DNA from: Candidatus Omnitrophota bacterium
GTDB taxonomy: Bacteria > Omnitrophota > Gorgyraeia > Gygaellales > Profunditerraquicolaceae
Reading direction: 5' to 3'
Length of the DNA stretch: 52,371 nucleotides
Assembly (NCBI GenBank): GCA_043798795.1
Contig: JAZDOJ010000037.1
Coordinates: forward strand, 1-52,371
The translations under genes were made by a program, and so were the position numbers. The notes beneath the pieces were generated by a model. The model did not search any database and was not told where the DNA came from. It worked only from the letters and a program-made list of their open reading frames with translations. Positions 8,620 to 52,146 of the stretch are shown here, in pieces; the stretch's first letter is position 1, and every line of letters begins with the position of its first letter.

Positions 8620-8627
8620 GTGAAGAG

Positions 8628-9467
8628 ATGGCATTATTCGGAAAACCCAAATACACCATCGTCCGATTAAAAAAGAAGGAAATGCCAGATGGCCTCTGGA
8701 CCAAGTGCGAAGGGTGCTCCGAGACTCTCTACAACAAGACCTTGGAAGAAAACCAGAAGGTCTGTCCGAAATGCAATCATCATTTTGTGTTGGGCGCCTA
8801 TGAGCGCATCCATTTATTGATAGATAAAGACACATTTCTTGAACTGGACAGAGATATGGCTTCCGTCGATCCTCTGGAATTCAAGGGGCCCAAGACCTAT
8901 AAAGAAAAATTAGCCAATGACCAAAGCGCGACAGGCCTTAGAGAAGCGGCCGTTTCCGGAGAGGGAAAATGTGAGGGCAGGAAAGTCATTTTAGCAGTAA
9001 CGGATTCCCGTTTTATCATGGGTTCGATGGGGTCGGTGGTCGGCGAGAAGATCACCCGCGCTATTGAAACAGCCACACGAAGCAAGCTACCTCTCATTAT
9101 CGTTTCCGGCTCAGGGGGTGGTGCGCGTATGTATGAGGGGATGTACAGCCTTATGCAGATGTCTAAGACCTGCGCGGCCCTGGCTTATTATAAACAGGCG
9201 AAACTTCCTTACGTCTCCGTGCTAACAAACCCTACCATGGCCGGCGTCATGGCTTCTTTTGCCGGCGTTGGGGATGTGATTGTGGCTGAGCCTCGGGCCC
9301 TGATTGGTTTTACGGGTCCCCGCGTCATTGAACAGACAATCCGGCAGAAATTGCCGCCGGGATTTCAGCGTTCGGAATTTCTTTTAGAGCACGGATTGAT
9401 CGATATGATCGTCCGCCGCAAGGAACTCAAAAATACGTTGAGTCAATTGCTTGACTATTTAAGTTAA
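8628..9467 (+). CDS. accD: Acetyl-CoA carboxylase carboxyltransferase beta subunit
   Basis: N-terminal zinc ribbon (CEGCSE...CPKCNHH) followed by the carboxyltransferase domain (GGARMYEG). Confidence 0.93.
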   Translation: MALFGKPKYTIVRLKKKEMPDGLWTKCEGCSETLYNKTLEENQKVCPKCNHHFVLGAYERIHLLIDKDTFLELDRDMASVDPLEFKGPKTYKEKLANDQSATGLREAAVSGEGKCEGRKVILAVTDSRFIMGSMGSVVGEKITRAIETATRSKLPLIIVSGSGGGARMYEGMYSLMQMSKTCAALAYYKQAKLPYVSVLTNPTMAGVMASFAGVGDVIVAEPRALIGFTGPRVIEQTIRQKLPPGFQRSEFLLEHGLIDMIVRRKELKNTLSQLLDYLS

Positions 9468-9534
9468 AGTAATATAATACTGAGTTCATAGTTCAGTGTA
9501 AAAAACCTAAAACATCTAAAAAAAGAGAGAAGAG

Positions 9535-10638
9535 ATGGCGCAAGTCAGCCTTAATAATGTTTCAAAGATTTTTGCGGGAAATGTCAAAGCGGTTGATTGT
9601 GTTAATTTAGGTATTGAGAATAAAGAATTCATGGTACTGGTTGGGCCTTCGGGTTGCGGAAAATCTACAACCTTAAGGATGATCGCAGGCCTGGAAGATA
9701 TGAGCGAAGGAAACATCTACATCGGAGACCAGCTTGTCAATGATGTGCCGGCCAAGGATAGAAACATCGCCATGGTGTTCCAGAATTACGCCCTGTACCC
9801 TCATATGACGGTCTTTGAAAATATGGCGTTTGGCCTGAGGCTGCGGCACATGCCTAAGAATGAGATCAGCCAGCGCGTTAATGAAGCCGCTGAGATATTG
9901 GGGATCAAGCGTCTTTTGAACCGTAAGCCCCGCGAGCTCTCCGGTGGCGAACGGCAGCGGGTGGCCGTCGGCAGGGCGATCGTGAGAAAACCGTTGGTTT
10001 TTTTGTTCGACGAACCCTTGAGCAACCTGGATGCGAAGATGCGCGTCCAGATGCGCACCGAAATCCATAAATTGCACATCAGGCTTCAGACGACCATTAT
10101 CTATGTGACGCACGACCAGGTCGAGGCCATGACCATGGGAGATCGGATCGCCGTTATGAAGGACGGGGTTCTGCAGCAGGTGGCCGATCCTATTACCGTT
10201 TACGACCAGCCAAAGAATAAATTCGTTGCCGGCTTTATTGGTTCTCCTCCCATGAATTTCATGAAGGGAAGTCTGCAGAAGAAGAATGGCAAGATCTTTT
10301 TTAGCGAAGGCAAGATCAGGGTCAGGCTTGTCGAGGATATGGTTCCTAAAATACTTTCCTATATCGGCAAAGAAGTCATTTTTGGCATCCGTTCCGAGGA
10401 TATCTATGATAAGTTGTTTGTCTCCGAGGCACCACCGGACAATATCGTCCGGGTGAGCTGTGAAGTGTTCGAACCGATGGGTTCAGAGGTTTATCTGTAT
10501 CTGAATACCGGCAGGCATACGTTCATTGCGCGGGTAGGTGCACACGACCGTCCCAAGATCAACCAGGATATGGATGTGGTCTTCGACATGAGCAAAGTGC
10601 ACTTTTTCAATAAAGATACGGAAGAAACTATCGTCTAA
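9535..10638 (+). CDS. ABC transporter ATP-binding protein, MalK/UgpC/MsmX type (orphan, no adjacent permease)
   Basis: Walker A GPSGCGKST, signature LSGGERQR, Walker B FLFDEPLS and a C-terminal TOBE-like domain. Confidence 0.9.
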   Translation: MAQVSLNNVSKIFAGNVKAVDCVNLGIENKEFMVLVGPSGCGKSTTLRMIAGLEDMSEGNIYIGDQLVNDVPAKDRNIAMVFQNYALYPHMTVFENMAFGLRLRHMPKNEISQRVNEAAEILGIKRLLNRKPRELSGGERQRVAVGRAIVRKPLVFLFDEPLSNLDAKMRVQMRTEIHKLHIRLQTTIIYVTHDQVEAMTMGDRIAVMKDGVLQQVADPITVYDQPKNKFVAGFIGSPPMNFMKGSLQKKNGKIFFSEGKIRVRLVEDMVPKILSYIGKEVIFGIRSEDIYDKLFVSEAPPDNIVRVSCEVFEPMGSEVYLYLNTGRHTFIARVGAHDRPKINQDMDVVFDMSKVHFFNKDTEETIV

Positions 10639-10667: not shown

Positions 10668-11846
10668 GTGCGCATGCTCTTCCCTATTCTTCTCGTCAAT
10701 ATCCTCGCCTTTTATTTCCTGTTTCAGCATTACTCAAAAAGAAAATACCGTCTGGAATATAAAATTCAGGATCTGCAGGAACAGCTGAACGTCCTCAAGG
10801 ATGAGTTAGGCAGGGAACTCCAAAATAATGCAGGTCAGAAGGTCCGGATCAAACGGTACAGTAATCTTAAGGACTATATTGAAGAACTCAACCGTAGCCT
10901 GGCCCTGGATTCTGTGGCCGAGAGCCTCACTGCCATTGCCTTTTCCCATATAGCCCGTCATCAGGGCGTCTGCATCCTTTATTTTATAGATAAGCAGTTG
11001 AACCTGCAGATTTTTAAAACAAAAAAACAAGACGATGGTCTCATCATCCAGGCCAAGAAAGGGGATGTCTTCGATTACTGGGTCCTCAGGCACCTGGGCC
11101 CCTTACTCATTGAGGATGTCCGGCAGGATTTCCGTTTTGATCTGGGAAAATTAGACAACAGGGAAAACAGGCTGATCTTGTCCCTGATCAGTTCCCCCCT
11201 CATGAGCGAACACAGAGTCTTAGGGACCCTCAGGCTGGATCATGCACAGGCTCATTTTTTTACACAGGACGATCTGCGTTTTCTTGTTGCCGTTTCCGAT
11301 TTGGGGGCTGTGGCCATAGAAAACAGTGAGCTTTATCAAAAAACGCGCGATTTAGCCATCCACGATACGCTCACCATGCTTTTTACAAAAGGGTTTTTTA
11401 TGGAAAGGTTGACGGAAGAATGCCTTCGGGCCTTGAGTCAGCGAACCGGGCTATATCTATTAATGCTCGATATCGATTTTTTTAAAAATTACAATGACCG
11501 GTTTGGGCATACGGCAGGAGATATCGTATTAAAAAGGTTGAGCCAAATCATGACGGGCGCCCTGAAAGACACCCTTGCCACGGTGAGTCGTTTTGGCGGA
11601 GAGGAATTCAGCGTGTTGCTTCCCTGTGTCAATAAGAAAGCAGCTCAAAGTTACGCCGAAGAGATCCGCCGAAAGATTGAGGAAGAGGAAATTATTCTGC
11701 GAAGGCAGAAGACCCACGTTACGGTTTCGATCGGCATCGCCGGGTTTTGCGCAGATGCCCCTACGGAAGATGAGTTGATCCGCCGGGCCGATAAAGCCTT
11801 GTATCAAGCCAAGAAAAAGGGGAGAAATCAGATATGCTGTATCTAG
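10668..11846 (+). CDS. Membrane-anchored GAF-GGDEF diguanylate cyclase
   Basis: N-terminal TM helix, a GAF-like middle region and a GGDEF domain with an intact GGEEF active site (SRFGGEEFSVLLP). No RxxD I-site five residues upstream. Confidence 0.85.
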   Translation: MRMLFPILLVNILAFYFLFQHYSKRKYRLEYKIQDLQEQLNVLKDELGRELQNNAGQKVRIKRYSNLKDYIEELNRSLALDSVAESLTAIAFSHIARHQGVCILYFIDKQLNLQIFKTKKQDDGLIIQAKKGDVFDYWVLRHLGPLLIEDVRQDFRFDLGKLDNRENRLILSLISSPLMSEHRVLGTLRLDHAQAHFFTQDDLRFLVAVSDLGAVAIENSELYQKTRDLAIHDTLTMLFTKGFFMERLTEECLRALSQRTGLYLLMLDIDFFKNYNDRFGHTAGDIVLKRLSQIMTGALKDTLATVSRFGGEEFSVLLPCVNKKAAQSYAEEIRRKIEEEEIILRRQKTHVTVSIGIAGFCADAPTEDELIRRADKALYQAKKKGRNQICCI

Positions 11847-12847
11847 GCCTCCTTGTTTTTTTAACTTTTATTTTTCTGATGTTAGGAGGATTACATTGGC
11901 GCAGGAGCTTGAAAGAGAAAGAACTTACTCTTTTGGGTTTGAAAGAGGAATGCGAGAAGGTATCTCAGGAATGCGAGAAAATAAAAAGGGAGAATGCCAT
12001 CTTGGATGGGTCCGTTGAGGCAACGATCGCCCTTTTTGATATGACAAAAGATATTCGAAAAATCCTGGATGAAGACTTGATTTTTAAACTTTTTAAAGAG
12101 CGCATCAGCGCCTTTCTCAAGCTAGAGGATTGCCTGTTTCTTAAGAGTGAACCCGCTGCCTCAGTTGGCTCAACGATCCTGCCCATCATATTGGAAAATG
12201 AACCCGTAGGGTTTCTGGTGGTTCGAGGTCTTGCAGAACAGGATAAAGAGAAATTCCATATCTTAGCCCAGCAATTTGTCTCAGGGGTTAAGGGAGCCTT
12301 TTTGTTCAAAAAGGTCCAGGAGCTCACCATTGTTGATAGCCTGACCCAGACTTTTAACCGACGCTATTTTATGGAAAGGTTTCAAGAAGAGGTCAGCCGC
12401 TGCCAGAGATTTAAGCTCAAGCTTTCTTTCGTCATGGCGGATATCGACCATTTTAAAGAGATCAATGATCAATACGGACATCTGGTGGGGGATGCCATTT
12501 TAAGAGATGTTACGGAAGTCCTTAAGGAAAATATCCGAGAGATAGATTTCATGGGGCGTTACGGCGGAGAAGAATTATCCATCGTTTTCACGGAAACCGA
12601 TACAGAGGATGCCCGCTATGCCTGCGAGCGTATCCGAAAGGCCATTGAGTCAAGAAGCTTCCGTGTGTATGATGAGGACCTGAAAGTGACTTTGAGCCTG
12701 GGCCTGTCCACTTTTCCTTCTCACGCCAAGGAAGCCGATACGATCATCGAAAGGGCGGACGAGGCTCTGTATCAGGCCAAGGAGCAGGGCCGTAACCGCG
12801 TCTGCACCTATATGCCACCCTCAGGATCTCAAGATAGGGGTCTGTAA
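11834..12847 (+). CDS. Membrane-anchored GGDEF diguanylate cyclase with RxxD I-site
   Basis: TM helix, coiled coil and a GGDEF domain with REID-FMGRY-GGEEL (I-site plus a GGEEL variant of the active site). Overlaps the previous gene by 13 nt. Confidence 0.82.
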   Translation: MLYLGLLVFLTFIFLMLGGLHWRRSLKEKELTLLGLKEECEKVSQECEKIKRENAILDGSVEATIALFDMTKDIRKILDEDLIFKLFKERISAFLKLEDCLFLKSEPAASVGSTILPIILENEPVGFLVVRGLAEQDKEKFHILAQQFVSGVKGAFLFKKVQELTIVDSLTQTFNRRYFMERFQEEVSRCQRFKLKLSFVMADIDHFKEINDQYGHLVGDAILRDVTEVLKENIREIDFMGRYGGEELSIVFTETDTEDARYACERIRKAIESRSFRVYDEDLKVTLSLGLSTFPSHAKEADTIIERADEALYQAKEQGRNRVCTYMPPSGSQDRGL

Positions 12848-13868: not shown

Positions 13869-14509
13869 GGATATTCATTGATAGCGCCAATGTCAAAGAG
13901 ATCAAAGAAGCAGTCTCTTGGGGCGTGATCGATGGCGTAACAACCAATCCTACCCTTATCTCTAAAGAAAACAGAGTAGCTACGGAACTGCTCAAAGAAA
14001 TCTGTTCATTGGTATCAGGTCCGGTGAGTGCTGAAGTGATTGGCCTGGATGTCGAAGGCATGGTCAGGGAAGCGCGGCAACTTTCTAAGATAGCCAAGAA
14101 TATCGTCATAAAAATACCATTGGTTAAGGAAGGCCTGAAGGCCGTCCAGGCCTTATCAGCAGAAGGGATAAAGACAAATGTCACGCTTTGTTTTTCGTCT
14201 ACCCAGGCTTTATTGGTAGCAAAAGCAGGGGCTTCCTTTGTTTCTCCTTTTATCGGGCGGCTGGATGATACGGGTGAGGTCGGGATGGATCTTATCCGTG
14301 ACATTAAAAAGATTTTTACCAATTATGGTTTCAAGACCCAGATTATCGTGGCCAGCATCCGTAATCCCGTGCATGTGGTGGATGCGGCTTTGATAGGAGC
14401 GGATATTGCCACCGTCCCGTTTGCGGTCATTGAGCAACTTATCAAGCACCCGCTTACTGACAGTGGCATTCAGAGATTTTTGGAAGACTACAAGAAAATA
14501 CCTAAATGA
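13865..14509 (+). CDS. tal: Transaldolase / fructose-6-phosphate aldolase (short type 3B)
   Basis: 214 aa, (M)[12 protein letters not shown].., VTTNPTL and IKIP. GTG start overlaps the previous stop. Confidence 0.9.
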
Positions 14510-16680
14510 CGTCCATGCAAAAGCCTCTTAGTCTTGGATTCTGTGCCTTGTGCTTATTTTGTGCTTTGAGTTTTGTGCTTTGTGCTTTGACACTGGCCCA
14601 GGAGGCCAAAGAGCCTATTGTCGTCAATGGGGATGAGGTGGAATACTCAACGGATAATAAGGAGATCACGGCCAAGGGAAAAGTCGAGATTATTTACAAA
14701 GGTTCCAGACTTACCTGTCAGAAATTGACCGTTAATACGCAAACCAGAGAGGCGGTGGCCGAAGGCCTGGTGGTGTTGGATGATCAAAAAGGCATCATCG
14801 AAGGCTCAAAGATGATCTATAATTTTGATACGAAAACGGGCACCATTTTTGATTCCCATTTCCGGGCGAATCCTTATTTTGGCAAATCGGAAAAAGTGGA
14901 AAAGGTAAGCGATGCGGAGTTTATTGCCAAGAAGGGATTTGTCACGACGTGTAGTTTCAACGATCCCCATTACCGCATCGGCGCTAAACAAATCAACATG
15001 TTCCCTAAAGATAAGATCCAAACGCAAGGAGACACCGTTTTTATCGGCGATGTTCCGGTTTTGTATCTGCCCCGCTACAACCACAGCCTGAAAGATTCCA
15101 TGATGCATTTTCAGGTCATGCCGGGAAAAAAATCGGATTGGGGGGGATACCTTCTTTCCATGTACAGGCAGAATCTGACGCCCTCTCTCGACGCCAGGCT
15201 CTATTTGGATTACCGTAGCAAACTTGGGCTAGCCGAGGGGTTCGGGCTTAACTATATCAGCCAACATTTTGGGAAGGGGGACTACAAATTTTATTATACG
15301 CATGAGCAACCCGATGGATTGAATGAGGATTTTGAGAGATATTTGGTCCGTTGGCGCCATAAATGGGATGTGGATGAAAGGACCAAAGTAACTTCTGAAG
15401 TCTACAAGATTACGGATGAGCGCAGGAAGTTTGATACGGCGCACGGCTTCCTTAAGGACTATTTCTACCGCGAATACGAAACAGACAGCGAGCCCCTGAC
15501 ATACGCTTTACTCCACCACAATTTTAAATATTCCAGCATGGACTTCCTGGTTCAGAAACGCATTAATAACTGGTATGACCAGATAGATAAACTGCCCGAA
15601 GTCAAATATTCTCTTGCGAACATCAATATAGGAGAGTCTCCTTTTTATTTTGAAAGTAGTACATCGGTGGCCTCTTATAATAAGAAGGCCTCAACCGCGC
15701 CCGCATCTTTAGATGAAGTCAGCGTGACCCGCTTGGATACCTTCAATAAAGTTTCGCTGCCCACGCGCCTGTCTTTCTTACAGGTGGCTCCTTATGTCGC
15801 TGGCCGGGAAACGGTATACGATAAGGCAGCGGATGATGAGAATCTTGCCTCCAGGGCAACCTTTTATAGCGGAGTGGACGTGAGCACCAAGTTTTATCGC
15901 ATCTTTGATGTCAAGTCTGATTTTCTGAACATGGAGATGGATGGTTTAAGGCATATCATCACGCCAACCGTAGGTTACGCCTATAATCACGATCCCACGA
16001 TTCCTGCCGGCCAGCTTTACCAGATAGACAGTGTTGACGCCATTACGGGAAGCAATGCAGCAAAGCTTGGGCTCTCTAATAAATTGCAGACAAAAAGAGA
16101 GGGTAAGAGCGTGGATCTGCTGGACTTCTTGGTGAGCAGTTCTTATGTCTTTCAGCCAAAGACCGGGAATAAGTCAGGGAGCCATCTTTCGGATATTCTA
16201 TTGGATGTGAAACTCCTGCCTTATTCGTGGCTGCGCATTCAGTCCGATGCCGTCTACCAGCATTCAGGAAGCCGTTCTGACGTTAATTACCGAAAGTTTT
16301 CCGAGGCCAATTACGACATCAGCTTTAATCTGGGTAAAGAGCGTTCCTTGGGGATTGGCCAGCGGTATCAGAGACAAAGCGGGAATGAGCTGACGGCTTC
16401 CCTTTATTGGCGGCTCAATCCGAAATGGAAATTCTCTATTTACCAAAGATACAATCTTAAGCCCTATCGGGATTCAGCCAACCGCGATATACCCAGGGGC
16501 GTACTCGAGCAGGAATATACGATTTCCAGGGATCTGCATTGCTGGGTTATGGATATCACGGTCAGTGATAGAAGAAACGAGGGCGCCACTATTTTTTGCC
16601 TGTTTAGACTCAAGGCGTTCCCTGAAATGGAATTCGGATTTAATCAGAGTTATCGGGAGTCTCGATCCGGCGCGCAATAA
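14506..16680 (+). CDS. lptD: LPS-assembly outer membrane protein LptD (OstA family)
   Basis: Signal peptide, an OstA-like N-terminal beta-jellyroll (VVNGDEVEY...[18 protein letters not shown]) and a large beta-barrel region. Confidence 0.8.
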
Positions 16681-29662: not shown

Positions 29663-30148
29663 ATGAAAAAAATAAGGTTTACTTCCGAGCGCATAGGAGA
29701 GCTTCTAGTCAAGGCAGGAATTATAACTAAGAAGCAGCTTAATAGAGCATTAAAAATCCATAAGCATAATTCCAGCTATATCGGAGATGTACTTATAAAA
29801 TGTAATTTTGCCAAGGAAGAAGATGTTGTCTCGGCTTTGATGGCCCAATATCATTTTCCCTATATTCCTTTAGAAAATTATAATATTGATTTAGAAGTCC
29901 TTAATATAATTCCAGAAGAGATTGCCCGTAAATATCTTGTCATACCCCTTGATAGGGTAGGAAAATGTTTCACGGTGGCAATGGCAGATCCTCTGGATGA
30001 ACAAGCAGTCGTTGAAATAGAGACATTATCACACTGTCATGTTGAAATATTTATTGCTACACCTTCAGATATTGAAAACAATATCACAAAGTATTATTCG
30101 GTTGAAAAATACTCAACCTTATTTCCCAGCCATCACAAGTACGGTTAA
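29663..30148 (+). CDS. Stand-alone MshEN (T2SSE_N) domain protein, putative c-di-GMP receptor
   Basis: Tandem 24-residue MshEN-type motifs: RIGELLVKAGIITKKQLNRALKIH and YIGDVLIKCNFAKEEDVVSALMAQ, compared with RLGxxLLxxGLLxxxxLxxxLxxQ. No ATPase domain follows. Confidence 0.75.
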   Translation: MKKIRFTSERIGELLVKAGIITKKQLNRALKIHKHNSSYIGDVLIKCNFAKEEDVVSALMAQYHFPYIPLENYNIDLEVLNIIPEEIARKYLVIPLDRVGKCFTVAMADPLDEQAVVEIETLSHCHVEIFIATPSDIENNITKYYSVEKYSTLFPSHHKYG

Positions 30149-30382: not shown

Positions 30383-30454
30383 GGGCCCATAGCTCAGTGG
30401 TAGAGCAGGTGACTCATAATCACTTGGTCGGAGGTCCGAGTCCTTCTGGGCCCA
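30383..30454 (+). tRNA. tRNA with CAT anticodon (elongator Met or Ile2)
   Basis: Cloverleaf: acceptor GGGCCCA/TGGGCCC, D arm GCTC..GAGC and anticodon loop CTCATAA. The T loop reads TCCGAGT (C at position 55). No encoded CCA. It lacks initiator features. Confidence 0.85.
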
Positions 30455-30463
30455 GCGGATTCA

Positions 30464-30537
30464 GGGCGCATAGCTCAGTTGGTTAGAGCGCTACACTCAC
30501 ATTGTAGAGGTCGAAGGTTCAAGTCCTTCTGCGCCCA
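30464..30537 (+). tRNA. tRNA-Val (CAC)
   Basis: Acceptor GGGCGCA/TGCGCCC, anticodon stem CTACA/TGTAG with loop CTCACAT, and T arm GAAGG-TTCAAGT-CCTTC. Confidence 0.92.
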
Positions 30538-31878: not shown

Positions 31879-32296
31879 GGGGCAGGTAGGATGTGGTCGC
31901 CCTGAATGGTTCTATCAGGGAGGAAAGTCCGGGCTCCGGAGGACAGCGTAGTGGGTAATGCCCACCGTCGTCAAGAATTTTGGCGATAGGATTCCCCCCC
32001 CGGCTAGATAGTAGCAGGGGGACCCGCCGGTGACATTTTTTGAGTCGGCGGGAGAGGACAGAGACGAGTCCCTGCCGTTTTTAGGCGGGGAGTGAGACGA
32101 CCAATCTCTACGTGGAGCAAGGTGGAATAGGAGACAAGCCCGCCATCGGTGGGCAGGTGCTGGTCCGGCACCTCAAAGAGTCTCGGGTAAACTGCTTGAG
32201 GGCGGATGGTAACATCCGTCTCGAGAGAAATGGCCACTCCAGGTAAGCGAAAAAAATCGCAACCGATACAGAACCCGGCTTATTCTATCTGCCCCT
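31879..32296 (+). ncRNA. rnpB: RNase P RNA, bacterial type A
   Basis: Conserved GAGGAAAGTCCGGGCTCC near the 5' end and ACAGAACCCGGCTTA near the 3' end. Terminal P1 pairing GGGGCAG/CTGCCCC. Confidence 0.92.
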
Positions 32297-32339
32297 TTTA
32301 AAATTGAAATTTAGAATGTCATAACAGGAGGTCAACGAA

Positions 32340-43989: not shown

Positions 43990-44018
43990 TTGACAGCATG
44001 AAAAAGGCAAGTTATGAT
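43990..44018 (+). promoter_or_regulatory. Second sigma70-type promoter (TTGACA-17-TATGAT) proximal to the fibre locus
   Basis: Hexamers at 43990..43995 and 44013..44018. Another TTGACA lies 14 nt upstream. Confidence 0.5.
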
Positions 44019-44043
44019 AATACATTTGAGGGTGATAGGTAAC

Positions 44044-45423
44044 ATGAAAAGGTTAACGTTTTTGACATTTATTTTGACGTTAGCCCTCTGGTTCTTCCTT
44101 CCTGTTTCCAGTTGGGCCGCCTTTCGTATCTCTGTCGTTCCCTATGAGGGAGGCAATGACCTGAGATTCGAACGGGCCAGGGGTACCTTGCCTTACACGA
44201 CAAAAGAAGCAATCGTCACTGTCACTTCTGATATAGCGAAGCAATATCAAGTCATCCAAAGTCTGCTGGAGCCTTTAACAAGTGTCCAGGGGCAGACATT
44301 ATCAAGAGAGAATTTCACTGTTTATGCTGTTCCAGGAAGCAATGCCGCAGGAACCCTGACCGCGCAGCAGGAAATGAGCGTTTCGCCCGGCAGGACGATT
44401 CTCTATGTTTCCAATAGTCAGGGCATCTCCGATACCTTTAAATTGGTTTATATCCTCAAGCCTCCTTTTAATGTCCCTTCCGGATCCTACCGTGGCAGAA
44501 TATCTTTTACTCTGGAAGCCATCAATGCCGCTGAGCCTCCGGTGAACGTGATATTGAATATCTCGGCTGAGATTCAGGCTGAGTCCTCTTTCGAAATAAA
44601 GACTTTGACGGGAGCAAGTTCTATAAGGCTGGACGCTTCCAGACCGGACGGACAGGCCTGCGATGTGTTGTTTGGCATCAAAGGAGGAAGGGGGAGCCAG
44701 TTTAGAATTCTCCAGTCTTTGTCGGGTTTCATAGAATCCATGGAAGGAAACAGGCTTTCCCCGGATGCTATCTATTTTAGGGTCAGCCAGGCAGGAAAAG
44801 GGATGGGGCCTAACCAGAATACACGGCTTTCTGAGACTCAGGAGGCTGTCTATTTATCAGGACCGACGGGCGCAGAGGATCAATTTCTCATCACCTATAG
44901 TCTCGCCCCTACAGGCAACCAGAAAGCAGGACGCTACAGAGGGCAGATCCGCTACATGCTCGAAGGAATCGGTCAGCAAGAACTTATCGGCAAAATGGAT
45001 CTGGAAGTGGATGTGGCCAGAATTTTTGATTTGAAGATCACTCCGGAGTTGGGAGGAACCATCGAATTCCGTGATTTGAAACCGCAAGCCGCGCCCAAGC
45101 AATCCGAGGTTATCTTTGAGATTGCCAGCAACATCGGCAGGCCTTATCAGATCACCCAGTTTTTAACCACCGGACTCGTCAATAAGGAAGGTAATGTCAT
45201 CCCGAAGCAATTCTTTACATTAAGAGAAGAGAGCCTCGGAACGAGGGGAAGGCTCATCCTTAGCTCTCCCGCAGAAGTCAATATCGGAGAGACGATTTTA
45301 TTTGTTTCAGACCCCGCGGGCTCATCGGATAAGTTCAAAGTCATTTACGAATTAAAACCGTCTTTTGATATTATGGCAGGGGATTATACAACGCGTATCA
45401 CGTATTCGATTTCCGAGATTTAA
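44044..45423 (+). CDS. Exported protein made of three tandem pilin-like beta-sandwich repeats
   Basis: Signal peptide MKRLTFLTFILTLALWFFLPVSSWA. Three repeats of about 145 aa each end in a related motif: KLVYILKPPFNVPSGSYRGRISFTLEAI, LITYSLAPTGNQKAGRYRGQIRYMLEGI and KVIYELKPSFDIMAGDYTTRITYSISEI. Confidence 0.7.
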   Translation: MKRLTFLTFILTLALWFFLPVSSWAAFRISVVPYEGGNDLRFERARGTLPYTTKEAIVTVTSDIAKQYQVIQSLLEPLTSVQGQTLSRENFTVYAVPGSNAAGTLTAQQEMSVSPGRTILYVSNSQGISDTFKLVYILKPPFNVPSGSYRGRISFTLEAINAAEPPVNVILNISAEIQAESSFEIKTLTGASSIRLDASRPDGQACDVLFGIKGGRGSQFRILQSLSGFIESMEGNRLSPDAIYFRVSQAGKGMGPNQNTRLSETQEAVYLSGPTGAEDQFLITYSLAPTGNQKAGRYRGQIRYMLEGIGQQELIGKMDLEVDVARIFDLKITPELGGTIEFRDLKPQAAPKQSEVIFEIASNIGRPYQITQFLTTGLVNKEGNVIPKQFFTLREESLGTRGRLILSSPAEVNIGETILFVSDPAGSSDKFKVIYELKPSFDIMAGDYTTRITYSISEI

Positions 45424-45463: not shown

Positions 45464-46039
45464 ATGAAGAAAGGTTTAACGGCAATAATCAGTTTAACGC
45501 TACTTTTGGGTGTTGCCTCGATAGGTCTAGCTGCTGATACCAAGAGTGTCGGAGTGCAAGCTGTCGTGCCTCAACAGAATGGCCTGACCGTGACTGTTTC
45601 AAAGGTCGTGGGGACCACTTTTACAACGGCAACGAGCATCAACTTCGGCACGCTCGTGTATGATACGGTGAACAAGATTTTTACGACCTCCGACGGTTCC
45701 TACTATGCGGTGGATGTAGGATGCAACTCCAATTCGGCGGATTGGACGGTCACGCACACAATAACATCTTTGCTTAACGGAACGTCCAACTTGGATGGCC
45801 ATGTGAACGTCACCTTTATGAAGCAGACGTCCAGCACAGCAGGTACGCAAATCAGCAAATACAGTTATGCCGCAAGCAACAACAAGCCTTTTACAAAAGC
45901 TCAACTATCAGGTGGATGGTTGAGAGTTTACTATGGCTTGGCCACAGGTGTTGGTGATGCAACAGGCGTAACTCCAGTTCCGTCTGACAAGACGTACGGT
46001 ACCTACTCGGGCACAGTCACGTTTACTCTGACTCCGTAA
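45464..46039 (+). CDS. Exported pilin-like subunit (SCPU/Csu-like C-terminal motif)
   Basis: Signal peptide ..GVASIGLAA, then an alternating Nte-like segment SVGVQAVV, INFGTLV, GWLRVYYGL and the C-terminal YGTYSGTVTFTLTP. Confidence 0.65.
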   Translation: MKKGLTAIISLTLLLGVASIGLAADTKSVGVQAVVPQQNGLTVTVSKVVGTTFTTATSINFGTLVYDTVNKIFTTSDGSYYAVDVGCNSNSADWTVTHTITSLLNGTSNLDGHVNVTFMKQTSSTAGTQISKYSYAASNNKPFTKAQLSGGWLRVYYGLATGVGDATGVTPVPSDKTYGTYSGTVTFTLTP

Positions 46040-46189: not shown

Positions 46190-46864
46190 ATGAGAAGAAA
46201 GGGTTTTCAAATCTTGGCCGTTGTATGTGTGTCCTTGTTGGTGTGCGGAGTCAGTTTTGCTGCCTCCACCAGCACGTTATCAGCCTCAGCCACGGTAACC
46301 GGCCCTACGGGTATCAGCCCGGTAACTTTGCGAGTTTTGGGGACGGGGGCTAATCCTTCGGATTGGGCGGATACGACGAATTATACATCCTTGGATTTCG
46401 ATCCCTTAACGCTTTTAACCGGCACAGCGAATGGGATTCCGTTTTCGGTCTTTTTGCCTAACCACTTTTACTCCATTGATATGGCTTATACCTACGGTGG
46501 GGGTGCAGCGATAACCCAGATGTCCTTCTTGTTCACCGGGACAGAGCCAGCAGGCCAACCTATTGGCAGCGGCCTGGGCGTTAAAGGCACAGCGACTCTT
46601 GTGAAGAAAAGAATAGTCAATGGCGTTGAGGCTCCGGAAACGGGAGGGGATAGAATAGCCAAAGTGCTCCTCAGAGATGTCAGTACGGTTAATGTCCTGC
46701 TCACAGACATCGCTCAGGGCTGGTTAAGAATGTATGTCGGGCTCGTCACAAAAGATCCGGCTCTTCCTGCGGGCGACATTGAATTGGGTTCCGAGGCTCA
46801 GGTTTTTTCTCCGGGAGATGTGCCAGGTTCTTACACAGGGTCATTGACAATATCTTCTCTATAA
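46190..46864 (+). CDS. Exported pilin-like subunit, paralogue of 45464..46039
   Basis: Signal peptide ..CGVSFAA, TLSASATVT, GWLRMYVGL and the C-terminal PGSYTGSLTISSL. Confidence 0.65.
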   Translation: MRRKGFQILAVVCVSLLVCGVSFAASTSTLSASATVTGPTGISPVTLRVLGTGANPSDWADTTNYTSLDFDPLTLLTGTANGIPFSVFLPNHFYSIDMAYTYGGGAAITQMSFLFTGTEPAGQPIGSGLGVKGTATLVKKRIVNGVEAPETGGDRIAKVLLRDVSTVNVLLTDIAQGWLRMYVGLVTKDPALPAGDIELGSEAQVFSPGDVPGSYTGSLTISSL

Positions 46865-46911: not shown

Positions 46912-47715
46912 ATGAAAAAAAGTACATTTTTTCTAAGTGGGGTTCTTTTTTTGTTTTTCAGTTCTACGGCATTTGCGCAGCTTGTCTTGGATAAAAGGGA
47001 AATCAAAATTGATGCGAAGCCGGGAGAGACGGTGTCTGGTTCTGTCACGGTTTCCAACCTGTACGGTCAAGCCGTGACGCTCAAGGCGTATCTTGAAGAT
47101 TTTATTTACGAGGCGCCTTTCCGGGGGTTTAAGACCGTACTTCCTTTGGGTTCAACGTCTCGCTCTTTCGGGAAATGGGTCAGTATAACCACCCCTCTGT
47201 TTATCGTGCCCTCCAAATCAAAACAGGAAGTGACCTATTCCGTCAAAGTGCCCCAGAATGCCTTGGGCGGTTATTATGCGGTCCTTTTCTTTGAAAAAGG
47301 AGATGGTGCCGTATCAGGAGAAAAAGGTGTAGGGATTAAAGAAAAGGCCGGTTGCGCCTTGTTTTTGGAAACCACTAATAAAACTAAAGAAGCAAAAATT
47401 AATAAGCTAACTGTCCTTGAAGACCGCATCGAGAGTTCTCTTATGAATTCAGGGGATTGCCTGTTGATAGCTCAAGGTTCCTATTATATAATGGATGATA
47501 AAGGAATCGTGGCGGATAGGGGGCAGATGCAAAAGGTTTATCTTCCTGCCGGAGGAGAGGCTGCCTTCTCAGTGAAGATTTCTGAAAAGGTGCCTTCGGG
47601 AAAATACAACCTGGTAATTAATTTTGACACGGGGGAAGGAAAGACCTTTATCAAAGAGGCTGATTTCTCAAAAGACAAAGCAGGATCTTTAAAGATCCTC
47701 ACTCAGCGGGATTAG
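46912..47715 (+). CDS. Periplasmic two-domain Ig-like protein, candidate pilus chaperone
   Basis: Signal peptide. The N-domain pattern REIKIDAKPGETVSGSVTVSN....LKAYLEDF...GGYYAVLFFEK is paralogous to the next gene. Confidence 0.55.
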   Translation: MKKSTFFLSGVLFLFFSSTAFAQLVLDKREIKIDAKPGETVSGSVTVSNLYGQAVTLKAYLEDFIYEAPFRGFKTVLPLGSTSRSFGKWVSITTPLFIVPSKSKQEVTYSVKVPQNALGGYYAVLFFEKGDGAVSGEKGVGIKEKAGCALFLETTNKTKEAKINKLTVLEDRIESSLMNSGDCLLIAQGSYYIMDDKGIVADRGQMQKVYLPAGGEAAFSVKISEKVPSGKYNLVINFDTGEGKTFIKEADFSKDKAGSLKILTQRD

Positions 47716-47718
47716 AGA

Positions 47719-48591
47719 ATGTTGAACCGGATGAGCATCCTTTTACCACTCTTTAGCGTTATGAGTTTTTTCCTTTTTGCGCAAGGCCTGGAAGCGGCCA
47801 CGGTGCGTATCAATCCGACTAAAATACGCCTCATCATCCCGGCCGGCGGAACGAAAACCGGGACCATCGAGGTGGATAATCCTTCCGAATATTCCATCAT
47901 CGTGAAGAGCTATTTAGAGGATTGGGCTTATACACCTTTGCATGACGGCACGAAGAATTTCTCTGCGGCCGGAACGAACGCGTTATCCGCAAGCCGCTGG
48001 ATAACCACTTCGCTAAACGATTTTGTGGTCCCTGCTTTCGGGAAACAGGCCCTCCATTATACAATTCGGGTGCCTGAGAATAGCAGCGGCGGATATTACG
48101 CCGCCCTTTTTTTTGAAAGCCTTTTGTCTGAACCTGACGTTAAAGACATGACGCAGTTAGGGGTGGTGGTTCGGATTGGCGCCCTGTTTTATATTGAGGT
48201 GGAAGCAACCATTCGCAGAACTGCTGAAGTCTCGAATCTAGCTCTGGAACGGCTCTCAGGGAGTGAACCGCTGAAGATGAGCGCAGATTTCAAGAATTCG
48301 GGAAACGTCGACATCACGGCAGCAGGGACTTTCCATATCATGGACAATCAAGGCATGATTTTTGCCAGAGGAGATTTAACGGATGTTTATCTCTTTCCCG
48401 GCGAATCGGCAAAATTAACTTCCAGATGGAAAGATCCTTTATCGAAGGGTAAATATAATCTGGTCATGACACTTGATATCGGCAAAGCGCAAGAAGAGGC
48501 AAAGCTTGGAAGGGGCCCTGTTATTATCAAAGAAGCAGAGTTAGAAATTGGGGGGAGGGGCGAGGTTCTAAGGGTCGGCACATTAAGATAG
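47719..48591 (+). CDS. Periplasmic two-domain Ig-like protein, candidate pilus chaperone (PapD/FimC-like N-terminal pattern)
   Basis: TVRINPTKIRLIIPAGGTKTGTIEVDNPSEYSIIVKSYLEDW mirrors the ..TR.IYPAG.K...L.V.N......L.Q.W.. pattern of PapD-type chaperones. Also GGYYAALFFES. The second domain resembles that of the preceding gene (GKYNLV). Confidence 0.55.
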   Translation: MLNRMSILLPLFSVMSFFLFAQGLEAATVRINPTKIRLIIPAGGTKTGTIEVDNPSEYSIIVKSYLEDWAYTPLHDGTKNFSAAGTNALSASRWITTSLNDFVVPAFGKQALHYTIRVPENSSGGYYAALFFESLLSEPDVKDMTQLGVVVRIGALFYIEVEATIRRTAEVSNLALERLSGSEPLKMSADFKNSGNVDITAAGTFHIMDNQGMIFARGDLTDVYLFPGESAKLTSRWKDPLSKGKYNLVMTLDIGKAQEEAKLGRGPVIIKEAELEIGGRGEVLRVGTLR

Positions 48592-48593: not shown

Positions 48594-51407
48594 ATGGTGA
48601 CAATTTCGAGGTTAATAACCAAAACAAAAGGATTAAAAATCCTTTTTTTTATAATCTGTGCCTGGGCGGTCCTGTCGGCCTCATGGGTGCCGTGCGCGTT
48701 CGCCTATTCTCAAATTGCCGAGTATCTGTGCGAAATTGGGATAAAATTCTTCCAGCAAGGCCGCTATGAAGAGGCTTTGCATGAGTTTAAGAAGGCCCTG
48801 TTAGCCAAGCCTGATTATGAGGCAGCCCAAAAATACATTGAGATGACAGAGCGTATGATTCCTGGTGCGGCTGTTATGCCGACTCAAAAAATTCCTTCCG
48901 CAACCCCTGCCGAATACATGGAACTGCTTGAGATTCAAAAGGAAATGATGCGAGAGAAACAGAGGCCGGTCGTGCCTGCCATGCCGGCCGCTCAGAGGCC
49001 CGCAAAAGCTGTCTCCCTACCCGGGGAAATCAAAAAAAGGATTTATGCACCCAGGGAATTAACTTTGGATGAATCTTTTAGCCGCATAAGGCAACCCATT
49101 GAGATTGAGCAGGGAGAAACCATTGCGATCAAAGGGAGAGGTATCCAGAGATTCCTTGTCACCGAGCCACTTGTTTTAAAAGTCGAAAGAAAAGGACTTG
49201 ATGAAATTCTCGTTACGGGAGAAAGGATTGGCTATACCTTTCTTCATATCTGGGACCAAAACGGCCGATGGACTTTAGAGTTTCTTACGATTCCTCCCAG
49301 GCCCCAAGGCCCAACGCTTGAGGAAGAGCTGCGTCAGGCTGAAGAAAAAGCGAAAAACTTTAAATTCCGTTATTATCTGGATTGGTCTTCTTTTGAAACA
49401 GGTCGAAAATGGGATTCCTTAAAGCGCAGCAGTTATTCCTGGAGACATTCGTTGACTTTTTTTGGAGAAACGCCCTATGGGATGTTTGATTCAACGGTTT
49501 CAGGGAACGTCTGGCAAGACACTTCGGAAGTCTCCTATATGTCCGTTGGATTGACGCAAGGCAGGCTCGGCACTTTTAAGGATTTCAATGTACGGTTGCT
49601 GGACTTTACACCGGCTCTTTCGAACCTGATTTTATGGGGAGGGAATTTGCGCGGTGCCATGTTAAATTCCCCTGCTTTTGATAACATGATAGATTATACC
49701 GTTTTTTGGGGCACGGAAAGAGGCGGTCTTTACGGAGATTTCACGCCGGGATTTACCACAGAGAGGGAATCTTATTTGACCGGTATCGATGTGAATATCA
49801 AGCCGAAGGAAAAACAGAAATATGGTTTTTCTATTGTTCGCGGCGGGGGCAGCGACCGGCTCCCTGAGCTTAATGAATACGGTTACGACGCTGATTTTAG
49901 TCTTGACTTTGCCAAGGGGAGCCTGAGTGGTGATGTAGGTTTTGATTCAAAAAAATTTGCCTATCTGCTCAATGCCTCTACCAGCATCCCCGACCTCATC
50001 GTCAACTCGGAATTTCGCAATATCGATAAAGAATTCCTGACCATGACGGGCCTGGGGTCCCGGGCTGGTGAATTAGGCCTCTTGACAAATATTTTTTACA
50101 CGCCGCGGGAATATCTTACGGTTAATGCCAGAACAGACTTTTATCAAGACAGGCTTTTCCCCCGTCCTACAGATGAGGATGCCTGGAACCAGGATATGAA
50201 TTTGGGCGTAAGCCTCCAGGCCGACCCGGCGACCGTCTGGAGAGTGGATTATGCCTTGCAAAATGACCTGGGAAAGGTTTCCCCTCTCCGTAATTATAAC
50301 GCCGGGCTCTCTTTAAACAGGTATTTCGATTGGATAAGAAGGATCAATACGTTCATCATGTACCGTTACTATCATACAAATAATTTCCGATCTCCTACCC
50401 TGGACTACATCAATAACCGTATCATGATGGGAATAAGTTTCAATATCATAAAAGACCTCAATTATTTTGTCAACCAGGAATTCGGGTGGATTGAGGCCTT
50501 GAAGGCGGATGAGAAATCACATCCCCGCGCCCTCCAGACGGGCCTGGATTGGGGCAGGCAGATCTTTAAATCACCCTTCTTTGTCAATTTACGCTTTTTC
50601 TATCGGGACGAGGAAAATACCTTATCGCCTTTCAGCTTCCTTTCGGGAGAGGATTATGTGGAAAGCTACGGCGAGATCTCTTACAAACCCACGCCGGACC
50701 TGGAGGCCTTTTTCAATACCCGCGTGCGCAATGTCTGGGCTGAAAATCCCACGACGCAGAAGCGCCTCGATGTGAATTTTTACTCAGGATTGCGCTATCT
50801 TTGGGATACAGGCTTGCGCTGGGAATCCGTGGGGGCCATTGATGGCTACGTATTCAAAGACTATAATTCCGATGGGCTCAGGCAAAGGGATGAACCGCCG
50901 GTGGAGGGTGTTAAGATTTGGATGGGCAAAGATAAATTTGAAGTGACAGACCTGTTTGGTTATTACCGGTTCAGAAAAATTAAGGCGGCGAAGGCCTTTG
51001 TCAATATTGATACCACTACGATTCCGCCTGGTTTCCTCTTGACCGTCCCGTCTACCCAGGAAGCCCCTATCCTGCAGGCCGCAAGCACCCAGATTAACTT
51101 CGGGATTCTCAGCAAGACGGAGATTGTAGGGATCGTCTTTGATGATGTGGATGGGAAAAAAGAGCTGGGTCCTGGTTCTGTTGGCTTAAAAGGGGTCGAG
51201 GTCTACCTGGAAGACGGAAGCAGGGCTAAGACGGATAATTTCGGAAGATACGCGTTTAAAAAGGCGAACCTGGGTAAACACAGGCTCACCCTGGATTTAA
51301 AGACAGTGCCTGCCCAATATATACCTACCGTGCCTATCTTTGTCGATTTTGAATTATCGGAAGGCGACAGCTTCAGTTACAATATTCCAATGAAGAAAAC
51401 GGAGTAG
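48594..51407 (+). CDS. 937-aa outer-membrane protein: signal peptide, TPR, CpaC/RcpA-N-like domain, large beta-barrel and two SdrD-B/Cna-B-like domains
   Basis: TPR-like GRYEEALHEFKKALLAKPDYEAA. Pilus-N-like IEIEQGETIAIKGRGIQRFLVTEPLVLKV...ILVTGERIGYTFLHIWDQNGR. About 520 aa with amphipathic beta-strand periodicity rich in Y/F/W/N/G. C-terminal GYVFKDYNSDGLRQRDEPPVEGVKI...TDLFGYYRF and GIVFDDVDGKKELG..GLKGVEVYLEDGSRAKTDNFGRYAF. Confidence 0.6.
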   Translation: MVTISRLITKTKGLKILFFIICAWAVLSASWVPCAFAYSQIAEYLCEIGIKFFQQGRYEEALHEFKKALLAKPDYEAAQKYIEMTERMIPGAAVMPTQKIPSATPAEYMELLEIQKEMMREKQRPVVPAMPAAQRPAKAVSLPGEIKKRIYAPRELTLDESFSRIRQPIEIEQGETIAIKGRGIQRFLVTEPLVLKVERKGLDEILVTGERIGYTFLHIWDQNGRWTLEFLTIPPRPQGPTLEEELRQAEEKAKNFKFRYYLDWSSFETGRKWDSLKRSSYSWRHSLTFFGETPYGMFDSTVSGNVWQDTSEVSYMSVGLTQGRLGTFKDFNVRLLDFTPALSNLILWGGNLRGAMLNSPAFDNMIDYTVFWGTERGGLYGDFTPGFTTERESYLTGIDVNIKPKEKQKYGFSIVRGGGSDRLPELNEYGYDADFSLDFAKGSLSGDVGFDSKKFAYLLNASTSIPDLIVNSEFRNIDKEFLTMTGLGSRAGELGLLTNIFYTPREYLTVNARTDFYQDRLFPRPTDEDAWNQDMNLGVSLQADPATVWRVDYALQNDLGKVSPLRNYNAGLSLNRYFDWIRRINTFIMYRYYHTNNFRSPTLDYINNRIMMGISFNIIKDLNYFVNQEFGWIEALKADEKSHPRALQTGLDWGRQIFKSPFFVNLRFFYRDEENTLSPFSFLSGEDYVESYGEISYKPTPDLEAFFNTRVRNVWAENPTTQKRLDVNFYSGLRYLWDTGLRWESVGAIDGYVFKDYNSDGLRQRDEPPVEGVKIWMGKDKFEVTDLFGYYRFRKIKAAKAFVNIDTTTIPPGFLLTVPSTQEAPILQAASTQINFGILSKTEIVGIVFDDVDGKKELGPGSVGLKGVEVYLEDGSRAKTDNFGRYAFKKANLGKHRLTLDLKTVPAQYIPTVPIFVDFELSEGDSFSYNIPMKKTE

Positions 51408-51470
51408 TTAGTTCGTAGTTCATAGTTCGTAGTAAAATCTTTAAGCTCCGAACAACGAACTCCGAACTAA
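51408..51470. repeat. Long imperfect palindrome (25-nt arms, 21/25 paired) built from TAGTTCRT-type octamers; probable bidirectional terminator
   Basis: TTAGTTCGTAGTTCATAGTTCGTAG - 13-nt loop - CTCCGAACAACGAACTCCGAACTAA, between convergent genes. No U tract. Confidence 0.6.
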
Positions 51471-51472
51471 AG

Positions 51473-51724
51473 TTAGCGCGCGTAGTACGTCTTAACGAGC
51501 ATCTGCGGGGTTGAGACGTTCACGCTGGCTGCTTGCGCGTCCTGCTGGATCAGCTTCTCTGCCTCGGCCGTGACCTGGACCTGTTCCTGTTCCAAGAGAG
51601 GCGTATTCACGCCCGGGATAGCTGGGATCGTGCATGAAACAGGTAGCGATGATGTGTCACCCGCATGAGCCAGGGTCACTGTACAACAGAACGCTAAGAT
51701 CAAAGCCATAAACATTTTTTTCAT
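51473..51724 (-). CDS. Small secreted protein (83 aa), unknown function
   Basis: Signal peptide MKKMFMALILAFCCTVTLAHA. SD GAGGTG. Second gene of the riboswitch-controlled unit. Confidence 0.55.
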   Translation of the reverse strand: MKKMFMALILAFCCTVTLAHAGDTSSLPVSCTIPAIPGVNTPLLEQEQVQVTAEAEKLIQQDAQAASVNVSTPQMLVKTYYAR

Positions 51725-51735: not shown

Positions 51736-52011
51736 CTAACCTTCCGTGGCTGGTGTAGTGGGACTGACCCCTTTTTGCCCCATAATTTCCCTGATTCTAT
51801 TTTCCAAATCCTCTTCGGACTTAATATTCTTTCCGTTAATGTTTAACGCTTTCATAAAATCAACGAACCAGGCAATGATTTTAGCGCGGGATAATTTAGA
51901 GCCGGTTGAAAACAAGGCATCCTTGCCCAGCTTATCCAAAAAATCAATTTCTGCGCGATTCAAGAACGTAACTACCCGTTGATTCTTTTTCAGATGTTCC
52001 GAAAGGTTCAT
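51736..52011 (-). CDS. Small protein (91 aa) with ribbon-helix-helix-like N-terminus
   Basis: Start at the internal ATG (MNLSEHLKKNQRVVTFLNRAEIDFLDKL..) preceded by GGGGGTG. The longer ORF-track start would run through the terminator hairpin and the riboswitch. Confidence 0.55.
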   Translation of the reverse strand: MNLSEHLKKNQRVVTFLNRAEIDFLDKLGKDALFSTGSKLSRAKIIAWFVDFMKALNINGKNIKSEEDLENRIREIMGQKGVSPTTPATEG

Positions 52012-52022: not shown

Positions 52023-52060
52023 AAAAACAAAAAACCCTAAAGGCAATCTTTAGGGTTTTT
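52023..52060 (-). terminator. Intrinsic terminator forming the riboswitch expression platform
   Basis: Minus strand: ACCCTAAAG-ATTGC-CTTTAGGGT followed by TTTTTGTTTTT. It ends about 12 nt upstream of the start codon. Confidence 0.8.
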
Positions 52061-52065
52061 TCGCT

Positions 52066-52146
52066 CTTTGGCAACCCCGCTACCCGGTATTCCGGGCCGG
52101 AGGTTTTGCGCCCCAGCATTGCTGCTAGTTTGCCTTTATCAGTGAG
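52066..52146 (-). promoter_or_regulatory. c-di-GMP-I (GEMM-I) riboswitch aptamer
   Basis: Minus-strand RNA: GGCAAA-CUAGCA-GCAA-UGCUGG-GGCGCAAAACCUCCGG-CCCGGAAUACCGGG-UAGCGGGGUUGCC. It matches the conserved core recalled from the V. cholerae Vc2 aptamer (GGCAAACC, GNRA-capped hairpin, GGGACGCAAAGCCUCCGGCC, GGUAGCGGGGUUACC). The second hairpin is unusually short. Confidence 0.8.

Follow-up and report, generated by a model that had tools for sequence, protein, structure and literature searches.

Near the end of a 52,371-nt stretch of DNA from a Candidatus Omnitrophota bacterium (assembly GCA_043798795.1, contig JAZDOJ010000037.1, positions 1 to 52,371; the whole stretch is referred to as the window) lies a group of genes that is considered here as a candidate chaperone-usher-type system. 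The last gene of the operon encodes a 937-aa usher-like outer-membrane protein, hereafter called the pore, and is preceded by five genes on the same strand, namely those for a candidate large subunit, two candidate small subunits and two chaperone-like proteins, with a spacing of 2-3 nt around the chaperone-pore junctions (Table 1). On the opposite strand, the pore gene is faced by a convergent gene for a small secreted protein, which is preceded by a cyclic di-GMP (c-di-GMP)-I-type aptamer. An earlier note, made from the DNA letters alone, had described the pore as a chimeric outer-membrane protein, in which a tetratricopeptide repeat (TPR), a CpaC-N-like pilus domain, a non-secretin barrel and two SdrD/Cna-B domains are combined, and the protein segments that it quoted are all present in the translation of the open reading frame (ORF).

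Table 1. Features of the gene cluster, with the predicted domains of the pore (aa, residues of the 937-aa protein; nucleotides numbered from the first letter of the window; Ig, immunoglobulin; CTD, C-terminal domain)
Feature	Residues (aa)	Nucleotides	Strand	Remarks
Candidate large subunit		44014..45423	+	469 aa; true start perhaps M11 at 44044; signal peptide
Candidate small subunit 1		45464..46039	+	191 aa; signal peptide; candidate pilin
Candidate small subunit 2		46190..46864	+	224 aa; paralogue of small subunit 1 (24% identity)
Periplasmic chaperone-like protein 1		46912..47715	+	267 aa; signal peptide, no C-terminal transmembrane helix
Periplasmic chaperone-like protein 2		47719..48591	+	290 aa; signal peptide, no membrane anchor
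Usher-like outer-membrane protein (pore)		48594..51407	+	ORF of 937 aa; last gene of the operon
Pore: signal peptide (Sec)	1-36			cleavage predicted between AFA and YS
Pore: single TPR motif and capping helix	42-75	48717..48818	+	Pfam, profile against PDB, AlphaFold2
Pore: disordered Pro/Ala/Met-rich linker	92-150			AlphaFold2
Pore: PF13629 pilus N-terminal (CpaC/RcpA-N-like) beta domain	155-233	49056..49292	+	position of usher N-terminal domain
Pore: beta-barrel	257-738	49362..50807	+	~26 strands, without plug insertion
Pore: C-terminal Ig-like domain 1 (SdrD_B/Cna-B type)	746-840	50829..51113	+	position of usher CTD1
Pore: C-terminal Ig-like domain 2 (SdrD_B/Cna-B type)	843-935	51120..51398	+	position of usher CTD2
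Small secreted protein		51473..51724	-	83 aa; convergent with pore gene
Small cytoplasmic protein		51736..52011	-	91 aa; between riboswitch and secreted-protein gene; in some loci only
Terminator-like hairpin		52029..52061	-	14 pairs and T-run, directly after the aptamer
c-di-GMP-I-type aptamer		52066..52143	-	Rfam; GGC variant is the best model

Conservation of the gene cluster and its riboswitch

The pore belongs to a family of narrow distribution and constant architecture. A word-indexed search returned ~100 full-length homologues with 30-84% identity and identical architecture, all named ones originating from metagenome-assembled genomes of Omnitrophota. A hidden Markov model (HMM) of the barrel alone, run against 1.84 billion protein representatives, matched 259 of them at E<=1e-3, among them 178 at <=1e-30, and the most distant named members were again from Omnitrophota. 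Within the best 150 of the 259 representatives, the core of PF13629 domain, barrel and two Ig-like domains is constant in non-truncated entries and the PF13629 domain is present in all with a complete N-terminus, a TPR can be recognised in roughly half of them, and three Ig domains occur in one subgroup. A scan of GTDB species genomes yielded at least 79 loci, which, counted by record title and not by GTDB taxonomy, fall to Omnitrophota or Omnitrophica (57, among them Ca. Velamenicoccus archaeovorus LiM with its complete genome), 'uncultured Planctomycetales/Planctomycetia' (18, third-party bins), plain 'bacterium' (2), Margulisiibacteriota (1) and Deltaproteobacteria (1). In public databases the proteins are annotated as 'hypothetical', 'SdrD B-like domain-containing', 'pilus assembly protein N-terminal domain-containing' or 'TPR repeat protein', names that are uninformative, so that the common annotated family, such as a PgaA/BcsC-like exporter, that would have spoken against the earlier note is not seen. 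Its description of the protein as chimeric is misleading, however, since the same core recurs in non-truncated relatives and in one operon in ~80 genomes.

The conservation extends to the neighbouring genes. When local HMMs of five cluster components were run over 86 loci, the large-subunit gene was followed by those for the small subunit(s), chaperone(s) and pore, and then by the small gene on the opposite strand, wherever the flanks sufficed; this includes Ca. V. archaeovorus and clusters whose pore has no more than 29-31% identity. Clusters contain 1-3 small pilin-like subunits and 1-3 chaperones, and the large subunit is the first cluster gene in ~65 loci. Among the 65 complete loci, the ratio of small subunits to chaperones is 1:1 in 53, 2:1 in 7, 2:2 in two (the window and L013) and 3:3 in one; a rule of one chaperone per small subunit was considered and rejected in view of these counts. 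In two clusters, L005 and L020, small-subunit and chaperone genes alternate pairwise. The flanks of the cluster vary among loci and consist of unrelated housekeeping genes, which in the window include RuvABC and aromatic amino-acid genes as well as those for PlsY, RpoD, DnaK and DnaJ, LepA and signal peptidase. No gene for an ATPase, an inner-membrane platform, a secretin or a polysaccharide synthase is part of the cluster in the loci inspected.

Individual loci show additional genes. In L005, the cluster sits between a PilZ gene, itself located after a giant gene encoding 25,104 aa, and genes for a sugar ATP-binding cassette transporter and a GH2-like protein. This region has been noted as conserved beside giant genes, with the cluster genes left unannotated (10.1101/2023.11.21.568195). 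The 121-aa ORF upstream of the cluster in the window was considered as a counterpart of this PilZ gene and rejected, as it is not PilZ-like. In one genome (L001, positions 6701-9997; the same genome as L057), the chaperone and pore genes are separated by an inserted gene, whose product of 1098 aa has ILEI and faint GH2_C matches and may be an accessory protein or cargo.

The opposite-strand region is conserved to a similar degree, the gene for the small secreted protein being found on the minus strand just 3' of the pore gene in 76 loci. The 83-aa protein of the window has a conserved VSCTIPAIPGVNxPL motif and a C-terminal Y-T-x-Y-A-R, and the 91-aa cytoplasmic protein is 69% identical to the product of a 77-aa gene of L005. 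With 64.7 bits (E 4e-13; Rfam RF01051 / RF03167), the aptamer in the window exceeds the gathering score of 59, and Rfam also identified c-di-GMP-I aptamers at the equivalent position in 5/5 further loci. A strict regular expression for the aptamer core matched at that position in 46 of the 72 loci in which the available sequence spans 250 nt or more, and nowhere else in ~1 Mb; when eight of the loci without a match were given to Rfam, an aptamer was found in seven, Ca. V. archaeovorus being the exception. As aptamer and small gene recur at one position in nearly all loci, we count both riboswitch and small protein among the parts of the system. The strong hairpin that follows the aptamer is a probable expression platform.

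The small genes are convergent with the pore gene. It is a possibility that the riboswitch transcript reads through into the 3' end of the latter, and c-di-GMP riboswitches have been reported as the class most prone to antisense action on convergent genes (PMC9943018). The 66-nt gap between the convergent stop codons (51408-51472) contains an imperfect long inverted repeat of GTTCG/CGAAC units, which could be a bidirectional terminator; the terminator scan made no call there. Also encoded in the window are two GGDEF diguanylate cyclases, in adjacent genes (10668-12847, plus strand), and a small protein with an MshEN domain, which binds c-di-GMP (29663-30148, plus strand). The presence of these genes indicates active c-di-GMP signalling in this genome.

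Predicted structure of the pore, the chaperones and the subunits

The domain assignments of the pore rest on several lines of analysis. In Pfam, SdrD_B was matched in two stretches (E 9.8e-12, over the gathering score), T2SS-T3SS_pil_N (PF13629) at aa 168-225 with 27.3 bits, where the cutoff is 23 (E 3e-6), and TPR_1/TPR_2 at aa 42-75 (E 3e-5, slightly under the gathering score); no Pfam match was obtained to the secretin (PF00263), usher, LptD or OstA families. Across the six cluster proteins of the window, Pfam and NCBIfam recognised the accessory domains of the pore and nothing in the subunits or chaperones. The TPR columns are kept in 55 homologues. In the PDB, the family profile built from these finds SdrD and consensus TPR proteins, together with a weak match to the N-region of a Tad-type (tight adherence) secretin (8jvb_A, E 0.026), while the central ~500 residues have no sequence match there. 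An AlphaFold2 model based on the alignment of the 55 homologues has a mean predicted local distance difference test score (pLDDT) of 85.5, with values >90 throughout the barrel, and displays in order a TPR hairpin, a linker, a small beta domain, a short helix, the barrel and two beta-sandwich domains.

The barrel itself is composed of ~26 long antiparallel strands, as counted by DSSP on the model, where 24 and 26 are not strictly separable, and is contained in a segment of 510 aa (508-517 aa among the aligned homologues), of which 482 aa are strand region. Turns of 2-5 residues alternate with loops of 3-18 residues in the model. Both termini and all accessory domains are predicted to be periplasmic, as the strand count is even and one set of connections is short, and a plug domain is taken to be absent because the longest loop within the barrel has 18 aa. 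The earlier note is thereby borne out in every domain call (TPR, PF13629 and both SdrD/Cna-B domains, by Pfam, profile against PDB and AlphaFold2), in the lack of a secretin C-domain among the Pfam matches, in the prediction of the centre as a barrel, on which it had made its reading depend, and in its estimate of about 520 residues of barrel-like character. Conservation within the family is highest in two stretches, SFLSGEDY(I/L/V)E (aa 678-687, nt 50625-50654), which the topology of the model places in an extracellular loop and the start of a strand, and RYLWDTG(L/V)RW (aa 734-743, nt 50793-50822) in the last barrel strand; the former might face the lumen as a gate or make contact with a substrate.

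When the pore model was compared with the PDB by Foldseek, the 15 best fold matches were all FimD or PapC, with E values from 3.5e-20 to 3.6e-9. Full-length usher structures align with it over ~770-815 columns and barrel-only usher structures (3ohn, 2vqi) over ~540-560 columns, with a template modelling (TM) score of 0.45-0.51. The best match outside the ushers was AlgE (2e-8), followed by TonB-dependent receptors (4e-8).

The two chaperone-like proteins are paralogues with 29% identity. In the model of the 290-aa protein (pLDDT 92.4), a flexible F1-G1-like loop precedes the last strand of the first of two beta-sandwich domains, and the 267-aa protein should likewise have two Ig-like domains, judging from its homology to the paralogue. 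Among fold matches of the 290-aa protein, the Enterococcus faecium WxLIP ranks first (9i25, 9i1y; 2e-12), including its structure in complex with WxL, and the best matches also comprise many true chaperones of chaperone-usher systems, namely CfaA, FimC, Caf1M, CsuC and YadV, the first four at 1e-10 to 1e-8 (CfaA with a TM score of 0.64-0.66). Remote homology to chaperones was detected as well: aligned by hhalign with eight E. coli chaperones, the family reached a probability of 85.6 and an E value of 5.5e-6, with both domains spanned, and the sole significant PDB sequence match of the family profile was EcpB (E 5.8e-4), whose G1 strand ARIGTILVVAP aligns with vRIGalfyiEP of the family. A basic residue is kept at position 33 in 63/67 sequences and at position 148 in 64/67, which fall opposite R8 and the G1 strand of FimC, respectively, in the hhalign alignment. 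The chaperone families PF00345 and PF02753 had no Pfam match in these proteins; PF06030 (WxLIP_PGBD, the WxLIP N-domain) was weakly matched by 8/14 family members and PF11797 by 1/14. One family member has been named 'PapD' by the Joint Genome Institute (JGI).

The candidate small subunits of 191 and 224 aa both possess a signal peptide, an N-terminal strand of alternating hydrophobic residues and a C-terminal G-x-Y-x-G-x-V-T-x-T strand; in small subunit 1, the conserved N-terminal strand reads V-G-V-Q-A-V-V and the C-terminal motif YGTYSGTVTFTLTP. The large subunit consists of three tandem subunit-like domains, each of which closes with G-x-Y-x-G/T-x-I-x-Y/F-x-L (six loci), and the small-subunit family aligns with its domain 1 by hhalign (probability 82.5, E 9.7e-6). 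Judged by its sequence, the large subunit is a candidate tip, adhesin or anchor subunit.

Interpretation and alternative explanations

Taken together, the 937-aa protein is probably the outer-membrane assembly and translocation platform, in other words the functional usher, of a chaperone-usher-type system specific to Omnitrophota, as suggested by its model, and it is the neighbourhood of chaperone and subunit genes that decides in favour of this reading. A full-text literature search that combined chaperone-usher or usher with Omnitrophota or Omnitrophica gave nothing relevant to the cluster, which is also not mentioned in the main Omnitrophota, giant-gene and complete-genome papers. We read the system as previously undescribed, and as a variant on the chaperone-usher principle that stands outside the PF00577 family.

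Several observations weigh against an usher function. The Pfam profiles Usher, PapC_N and PapC_C have no match in the pore at E<=1, and alignment of the pore family by hhalign was non-significant both with FimD (E 0.086) and with six E. coli ushers (E 0.2), being limited to the first SdrD-type domain, opposite FimD aa 698-771. Only 259 matches of the barrel HMM were obtained in 1.84e9 proteins, so that the large classical usher family is taken as not reached. The model has a predicted TM score (pTM) of 0.63, and the barrel alone fits ushers just 1-2 orders of magnitude better than AlgE or TonB-dependent receptors. In contrast to FimD and PapC, which have 24 strands and a plug domain between barrel strands 6 and 7, the Omnitrophota model has ~26 strands and no plug, and the N-terminal domain is secretin-associated (PF13629, CpaC/RcpA-N) instead of PapC_N. 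The subunits, finally, have no significant match to known pilins when their profiles are compared with Pfam and PDB sequences, and hhalign aligned them with 14 E. coli pilins over the signal peptide and first strand only; because no known pilin was matched, their identity as pilins is drawn from motifs and context only. The statement of the earlier note that the protein is unlike classical ushers thus stands for the sequence, in view of the missing Pfam and hhalign matches, but not for the topology, as FimD and PapC are the best folds and chaperone and subunit genes are the neighbours.

Of the alternatives, the one that best withstands the data sees in the cluster a diderm counterpart of the Gram-positive WxL/WxLIP surface complex. 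The WxLIP-like protein would then be a stable structural partner of the subunits and not a chaperone that is recycled, and the barrel would export or anchor a short non-polymeric complex at the cell surface. We consider it unlikely. It draws on the top rank of E. faecium WxLIP among the folds of the chaperone-like protein, on the PF06030 matches in 8 of 14 members, on the pairwise alternation of small-subunit and chaperone genes in L005 and L020, and on the proposal that WxLIP complements WxL by inserting a strand of a beta-hairpin (PMC10599100). However, the Omnitrophota proteins are without the C-terminal membrane anchor of WxLIP, the subunits have no WxL-domain match in Pfam or the PDB, WxL clusters have no counterpart of an usher-like pore, and in most loci a single chaperone is encoded beside one or two small subunits.

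A second alternative, which appears improbable, regards the barrel as the anchor of an inverse-autotransporter-like adhesin that displays the SdrD/Cna-B domains on the cell surface. Such domains are typical of surface adhesins, and in intimin and invasin an N-terminal periplasmic domain, a barrel and C-terminal Ig domains follow each other in an order that resembles that of the pore. Yet the barrels of intimin and invasin have 12 strands as opposed to ~26, neither protein is among the best 50 fold matches, which are dominated by ushers, and the pore family has only two or three Ig domains, which are highly conserved instead of variable. The co-conserved chaperones and subunits would be left unexplained.

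It is rather less probable still that the pore is a TPR-porin exopolysaccharide exporter of the PgaA, BcsC or AlgK/AlgE type, a general large-channel porin or an LptD-like protein, with neighbours that are incidental. The N-terminal TPR motif and the rank of AlgE as best non-usher fold match (2e-8) would fit the former, and LptD has a barrel of 26 strands, equal to the count in the pore. Against this, the TPR motif is single and undetectable in about half of the family, whereas the exporters have multiple repeats; the barrels of PgaA, BcsC and AlgE have 16-18 strands; no glycosyltransferase or polysaccharide synthase gene belongs to the cluster in the loci examined; LptD/OstA has no Pfam match and LptD is not among the best 50 folds; and chaperone and subunit genes accompany the pore gene in nearly every locus.

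Least plausible of all is a role of the pore in a Tad or type IV pilus, as its secretin-like or accessory component in the outer membrane. The PF13629 match, the weak profile match to 8jvb_A and the presence of Tad and T4a pilus genes in Omnitrophota genomes (PMC10066038) can be cited for this reading, but it is at odds with the lack of a secretin domain, with a model that is a monomeric barrel of ~26 strands and not a multimeric secretin, and with the absence of any tad/pil ATPase, platform or prepilin gene near the cluster in the window and the other loci inspected.

If the pore is an usher, the following mechanism can be envisaged. All components carry Sec signal peptides, as seen in the sequences, and would be exported to the periplasm, where the 267-aa and 290-aa proteins may act as PapD/WxLIP-like chaperones, a role for which fold and remote homology speak. 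In the putative binding mode, a G1-like strand donated by the chaperone (L-G-V-V-V-R-I-G-A-L-F-Y-I-E) would cap the incomplete Ig fold in the small subunits and in the three-domain subunit, with the C-terminus of the subunit presumably held by the two conserved basic residues of the chaperone. From the architecture of the pore, chaperone-subunit complexes would be expected to dock on its PF13629 domain, in place of the usher N-terminal domain, and on its two SdrD-B-type domains, in place of CTD1 and CTD2. The subunits may then polymerise by donor-strand exchange through their N-terminal alternating-hydrophobic strand, and the fibre would leave through the ~26-strand barrel; ATP-free export is proposed because the operon encodes neither an ATPase nor an inner-membrane component. 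The genes under control of the c-di-GMP-I riboswitch would be the convergent one for the small secreted protein and, in the window, that for the small cytoplasmic protein as well. In this way, production or assembly of the structure would be tied to the level of c-di-GMP, the aptamer being identified by Rfam and conserved, and its ligand response predicted. The small secreted protein may be an initiator, terminator, adaptor or gate.

A more far-reaching proposal, which we put forward tentatively, is that the clusters represent a phylum-wide class of chaperone-usher systems that are orphans in sequence, with a plugless pore of ~26 strands and a secretin-type N-domain, with chaperones that stand between PapD and Gram-positive WxLIP and thereby link monoderm WxL complexes to diderm chaperone-usher pili in evolution, and with an output that is switched by a c-di-GMP riboswitch driving a small secreted protein. 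The fibre could be an attachment organelle of the ultra-small, possibly predatory or host-dependent cells of Omnitrophota.

Chaperone-usher pili are a well-studied model for the ATP-independent assembly of fibres across the outer membrane. If the usher reading is true, the logic of the pathway, with Ig-type subunits, a two-domain chaperone and a large barrel between periplasmic domains, has been kept in Omnitrophota with most parts changed. This would show what features are essential to it; dispensable ones may include the plug, a barrel of 24 strands and an N-domain of the PapC type. Classical chaperone-usher systems are known mainly from Proteobacteria, so that the pathway would be extended to an uncultivated phylum near the Planctomycetes-Verrucomicrobia-Chlamydiae (PVC) group, and its chaperones would be connected with the WxLIP proteins of Gram-positive bacteria, whose function remains debated. 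Beside the Tad and type IV pili of Omnitrophota that have been proposed to serve in attachment to host or prey, a near-universal surface structure linked to c-di-GMP would have to be considered, for which the strictly conserved pairing of riboswitch and small protein provides a testable regulatory handle.

Two features elsewhere in the window were recorded in addition. Between 26000 and 30000, the GC content is 0.36-0.40, compared with ~0.47 elsewhere in the window, and few long ORFs are present; two tRNA genes (30383-30537) and the RNase P RNA (31880-32298) follow shortly after this stretch, which may be an island or integration site. A 724-aa protein encoded at 14506-16680 (plus strand) has an N-terminal LptC-related domain as its sole Pfam match and is unusually long for an LptC-like protein.

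Comparison with known systems

The likeness to FimD and PapC lies in the order of parts, namely a periplasmic N-domain, a very large monomeric barrel and two C-terminal Ig-like periplasmic domains, and in an operon in which a PapD-like chaperone directly precedes the pore, small secreted Ig-type subunits are accompanied by a larger multi-domain subunit and an ATPase is lacking. In addition to the differences in strand number, plug and N-domain discussed above, the Omnitrophota pore has a TPR motif and a disordered linker ahead of the N-domain, and its C-terminal domains are of the SdrD-B/Cna-B type. With the Tad secretins of the CpaC/RcpA type, the pore shares the N-terminal PF13629 domain, whereas the secretin domain, the multimeric channel and the Tad gene context are all absent in Omnitrophota.

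WxLIP (DUF916/PF06030 and DUF3324/PF11797) has the fold of two perpendicular Ig-like domains that is the best match of the chaperone-like proteins. It carries a C-terminal transmembrane helix and belongs to monoderm envelopes, whereas the Omnitrophota proteins, as predicted from their sequences, are soluble and periplasmic, and are partnered with an outer-membrane pore and with subunits that have no recognisable WxL domains.

The E. coli common pilus (ECP; EcpA-E), which belongs to an alternative chaperone-usher family, differs from the Omnitrophota cluster in that EcpC is a recognisable Pfam-type usher, its subunits are unrelated in sequence to those described here, and the annotation of the E. 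coli ecp locus shows neither a riboswitch nor a convergent small gene. In its composition, however, the ECP operon, with two chaperones (EcpB and EcpE), a small major subunit, an usher and the large polymerising adhesin EcpD (547 aa), has a gene inventory equal to that of the window.

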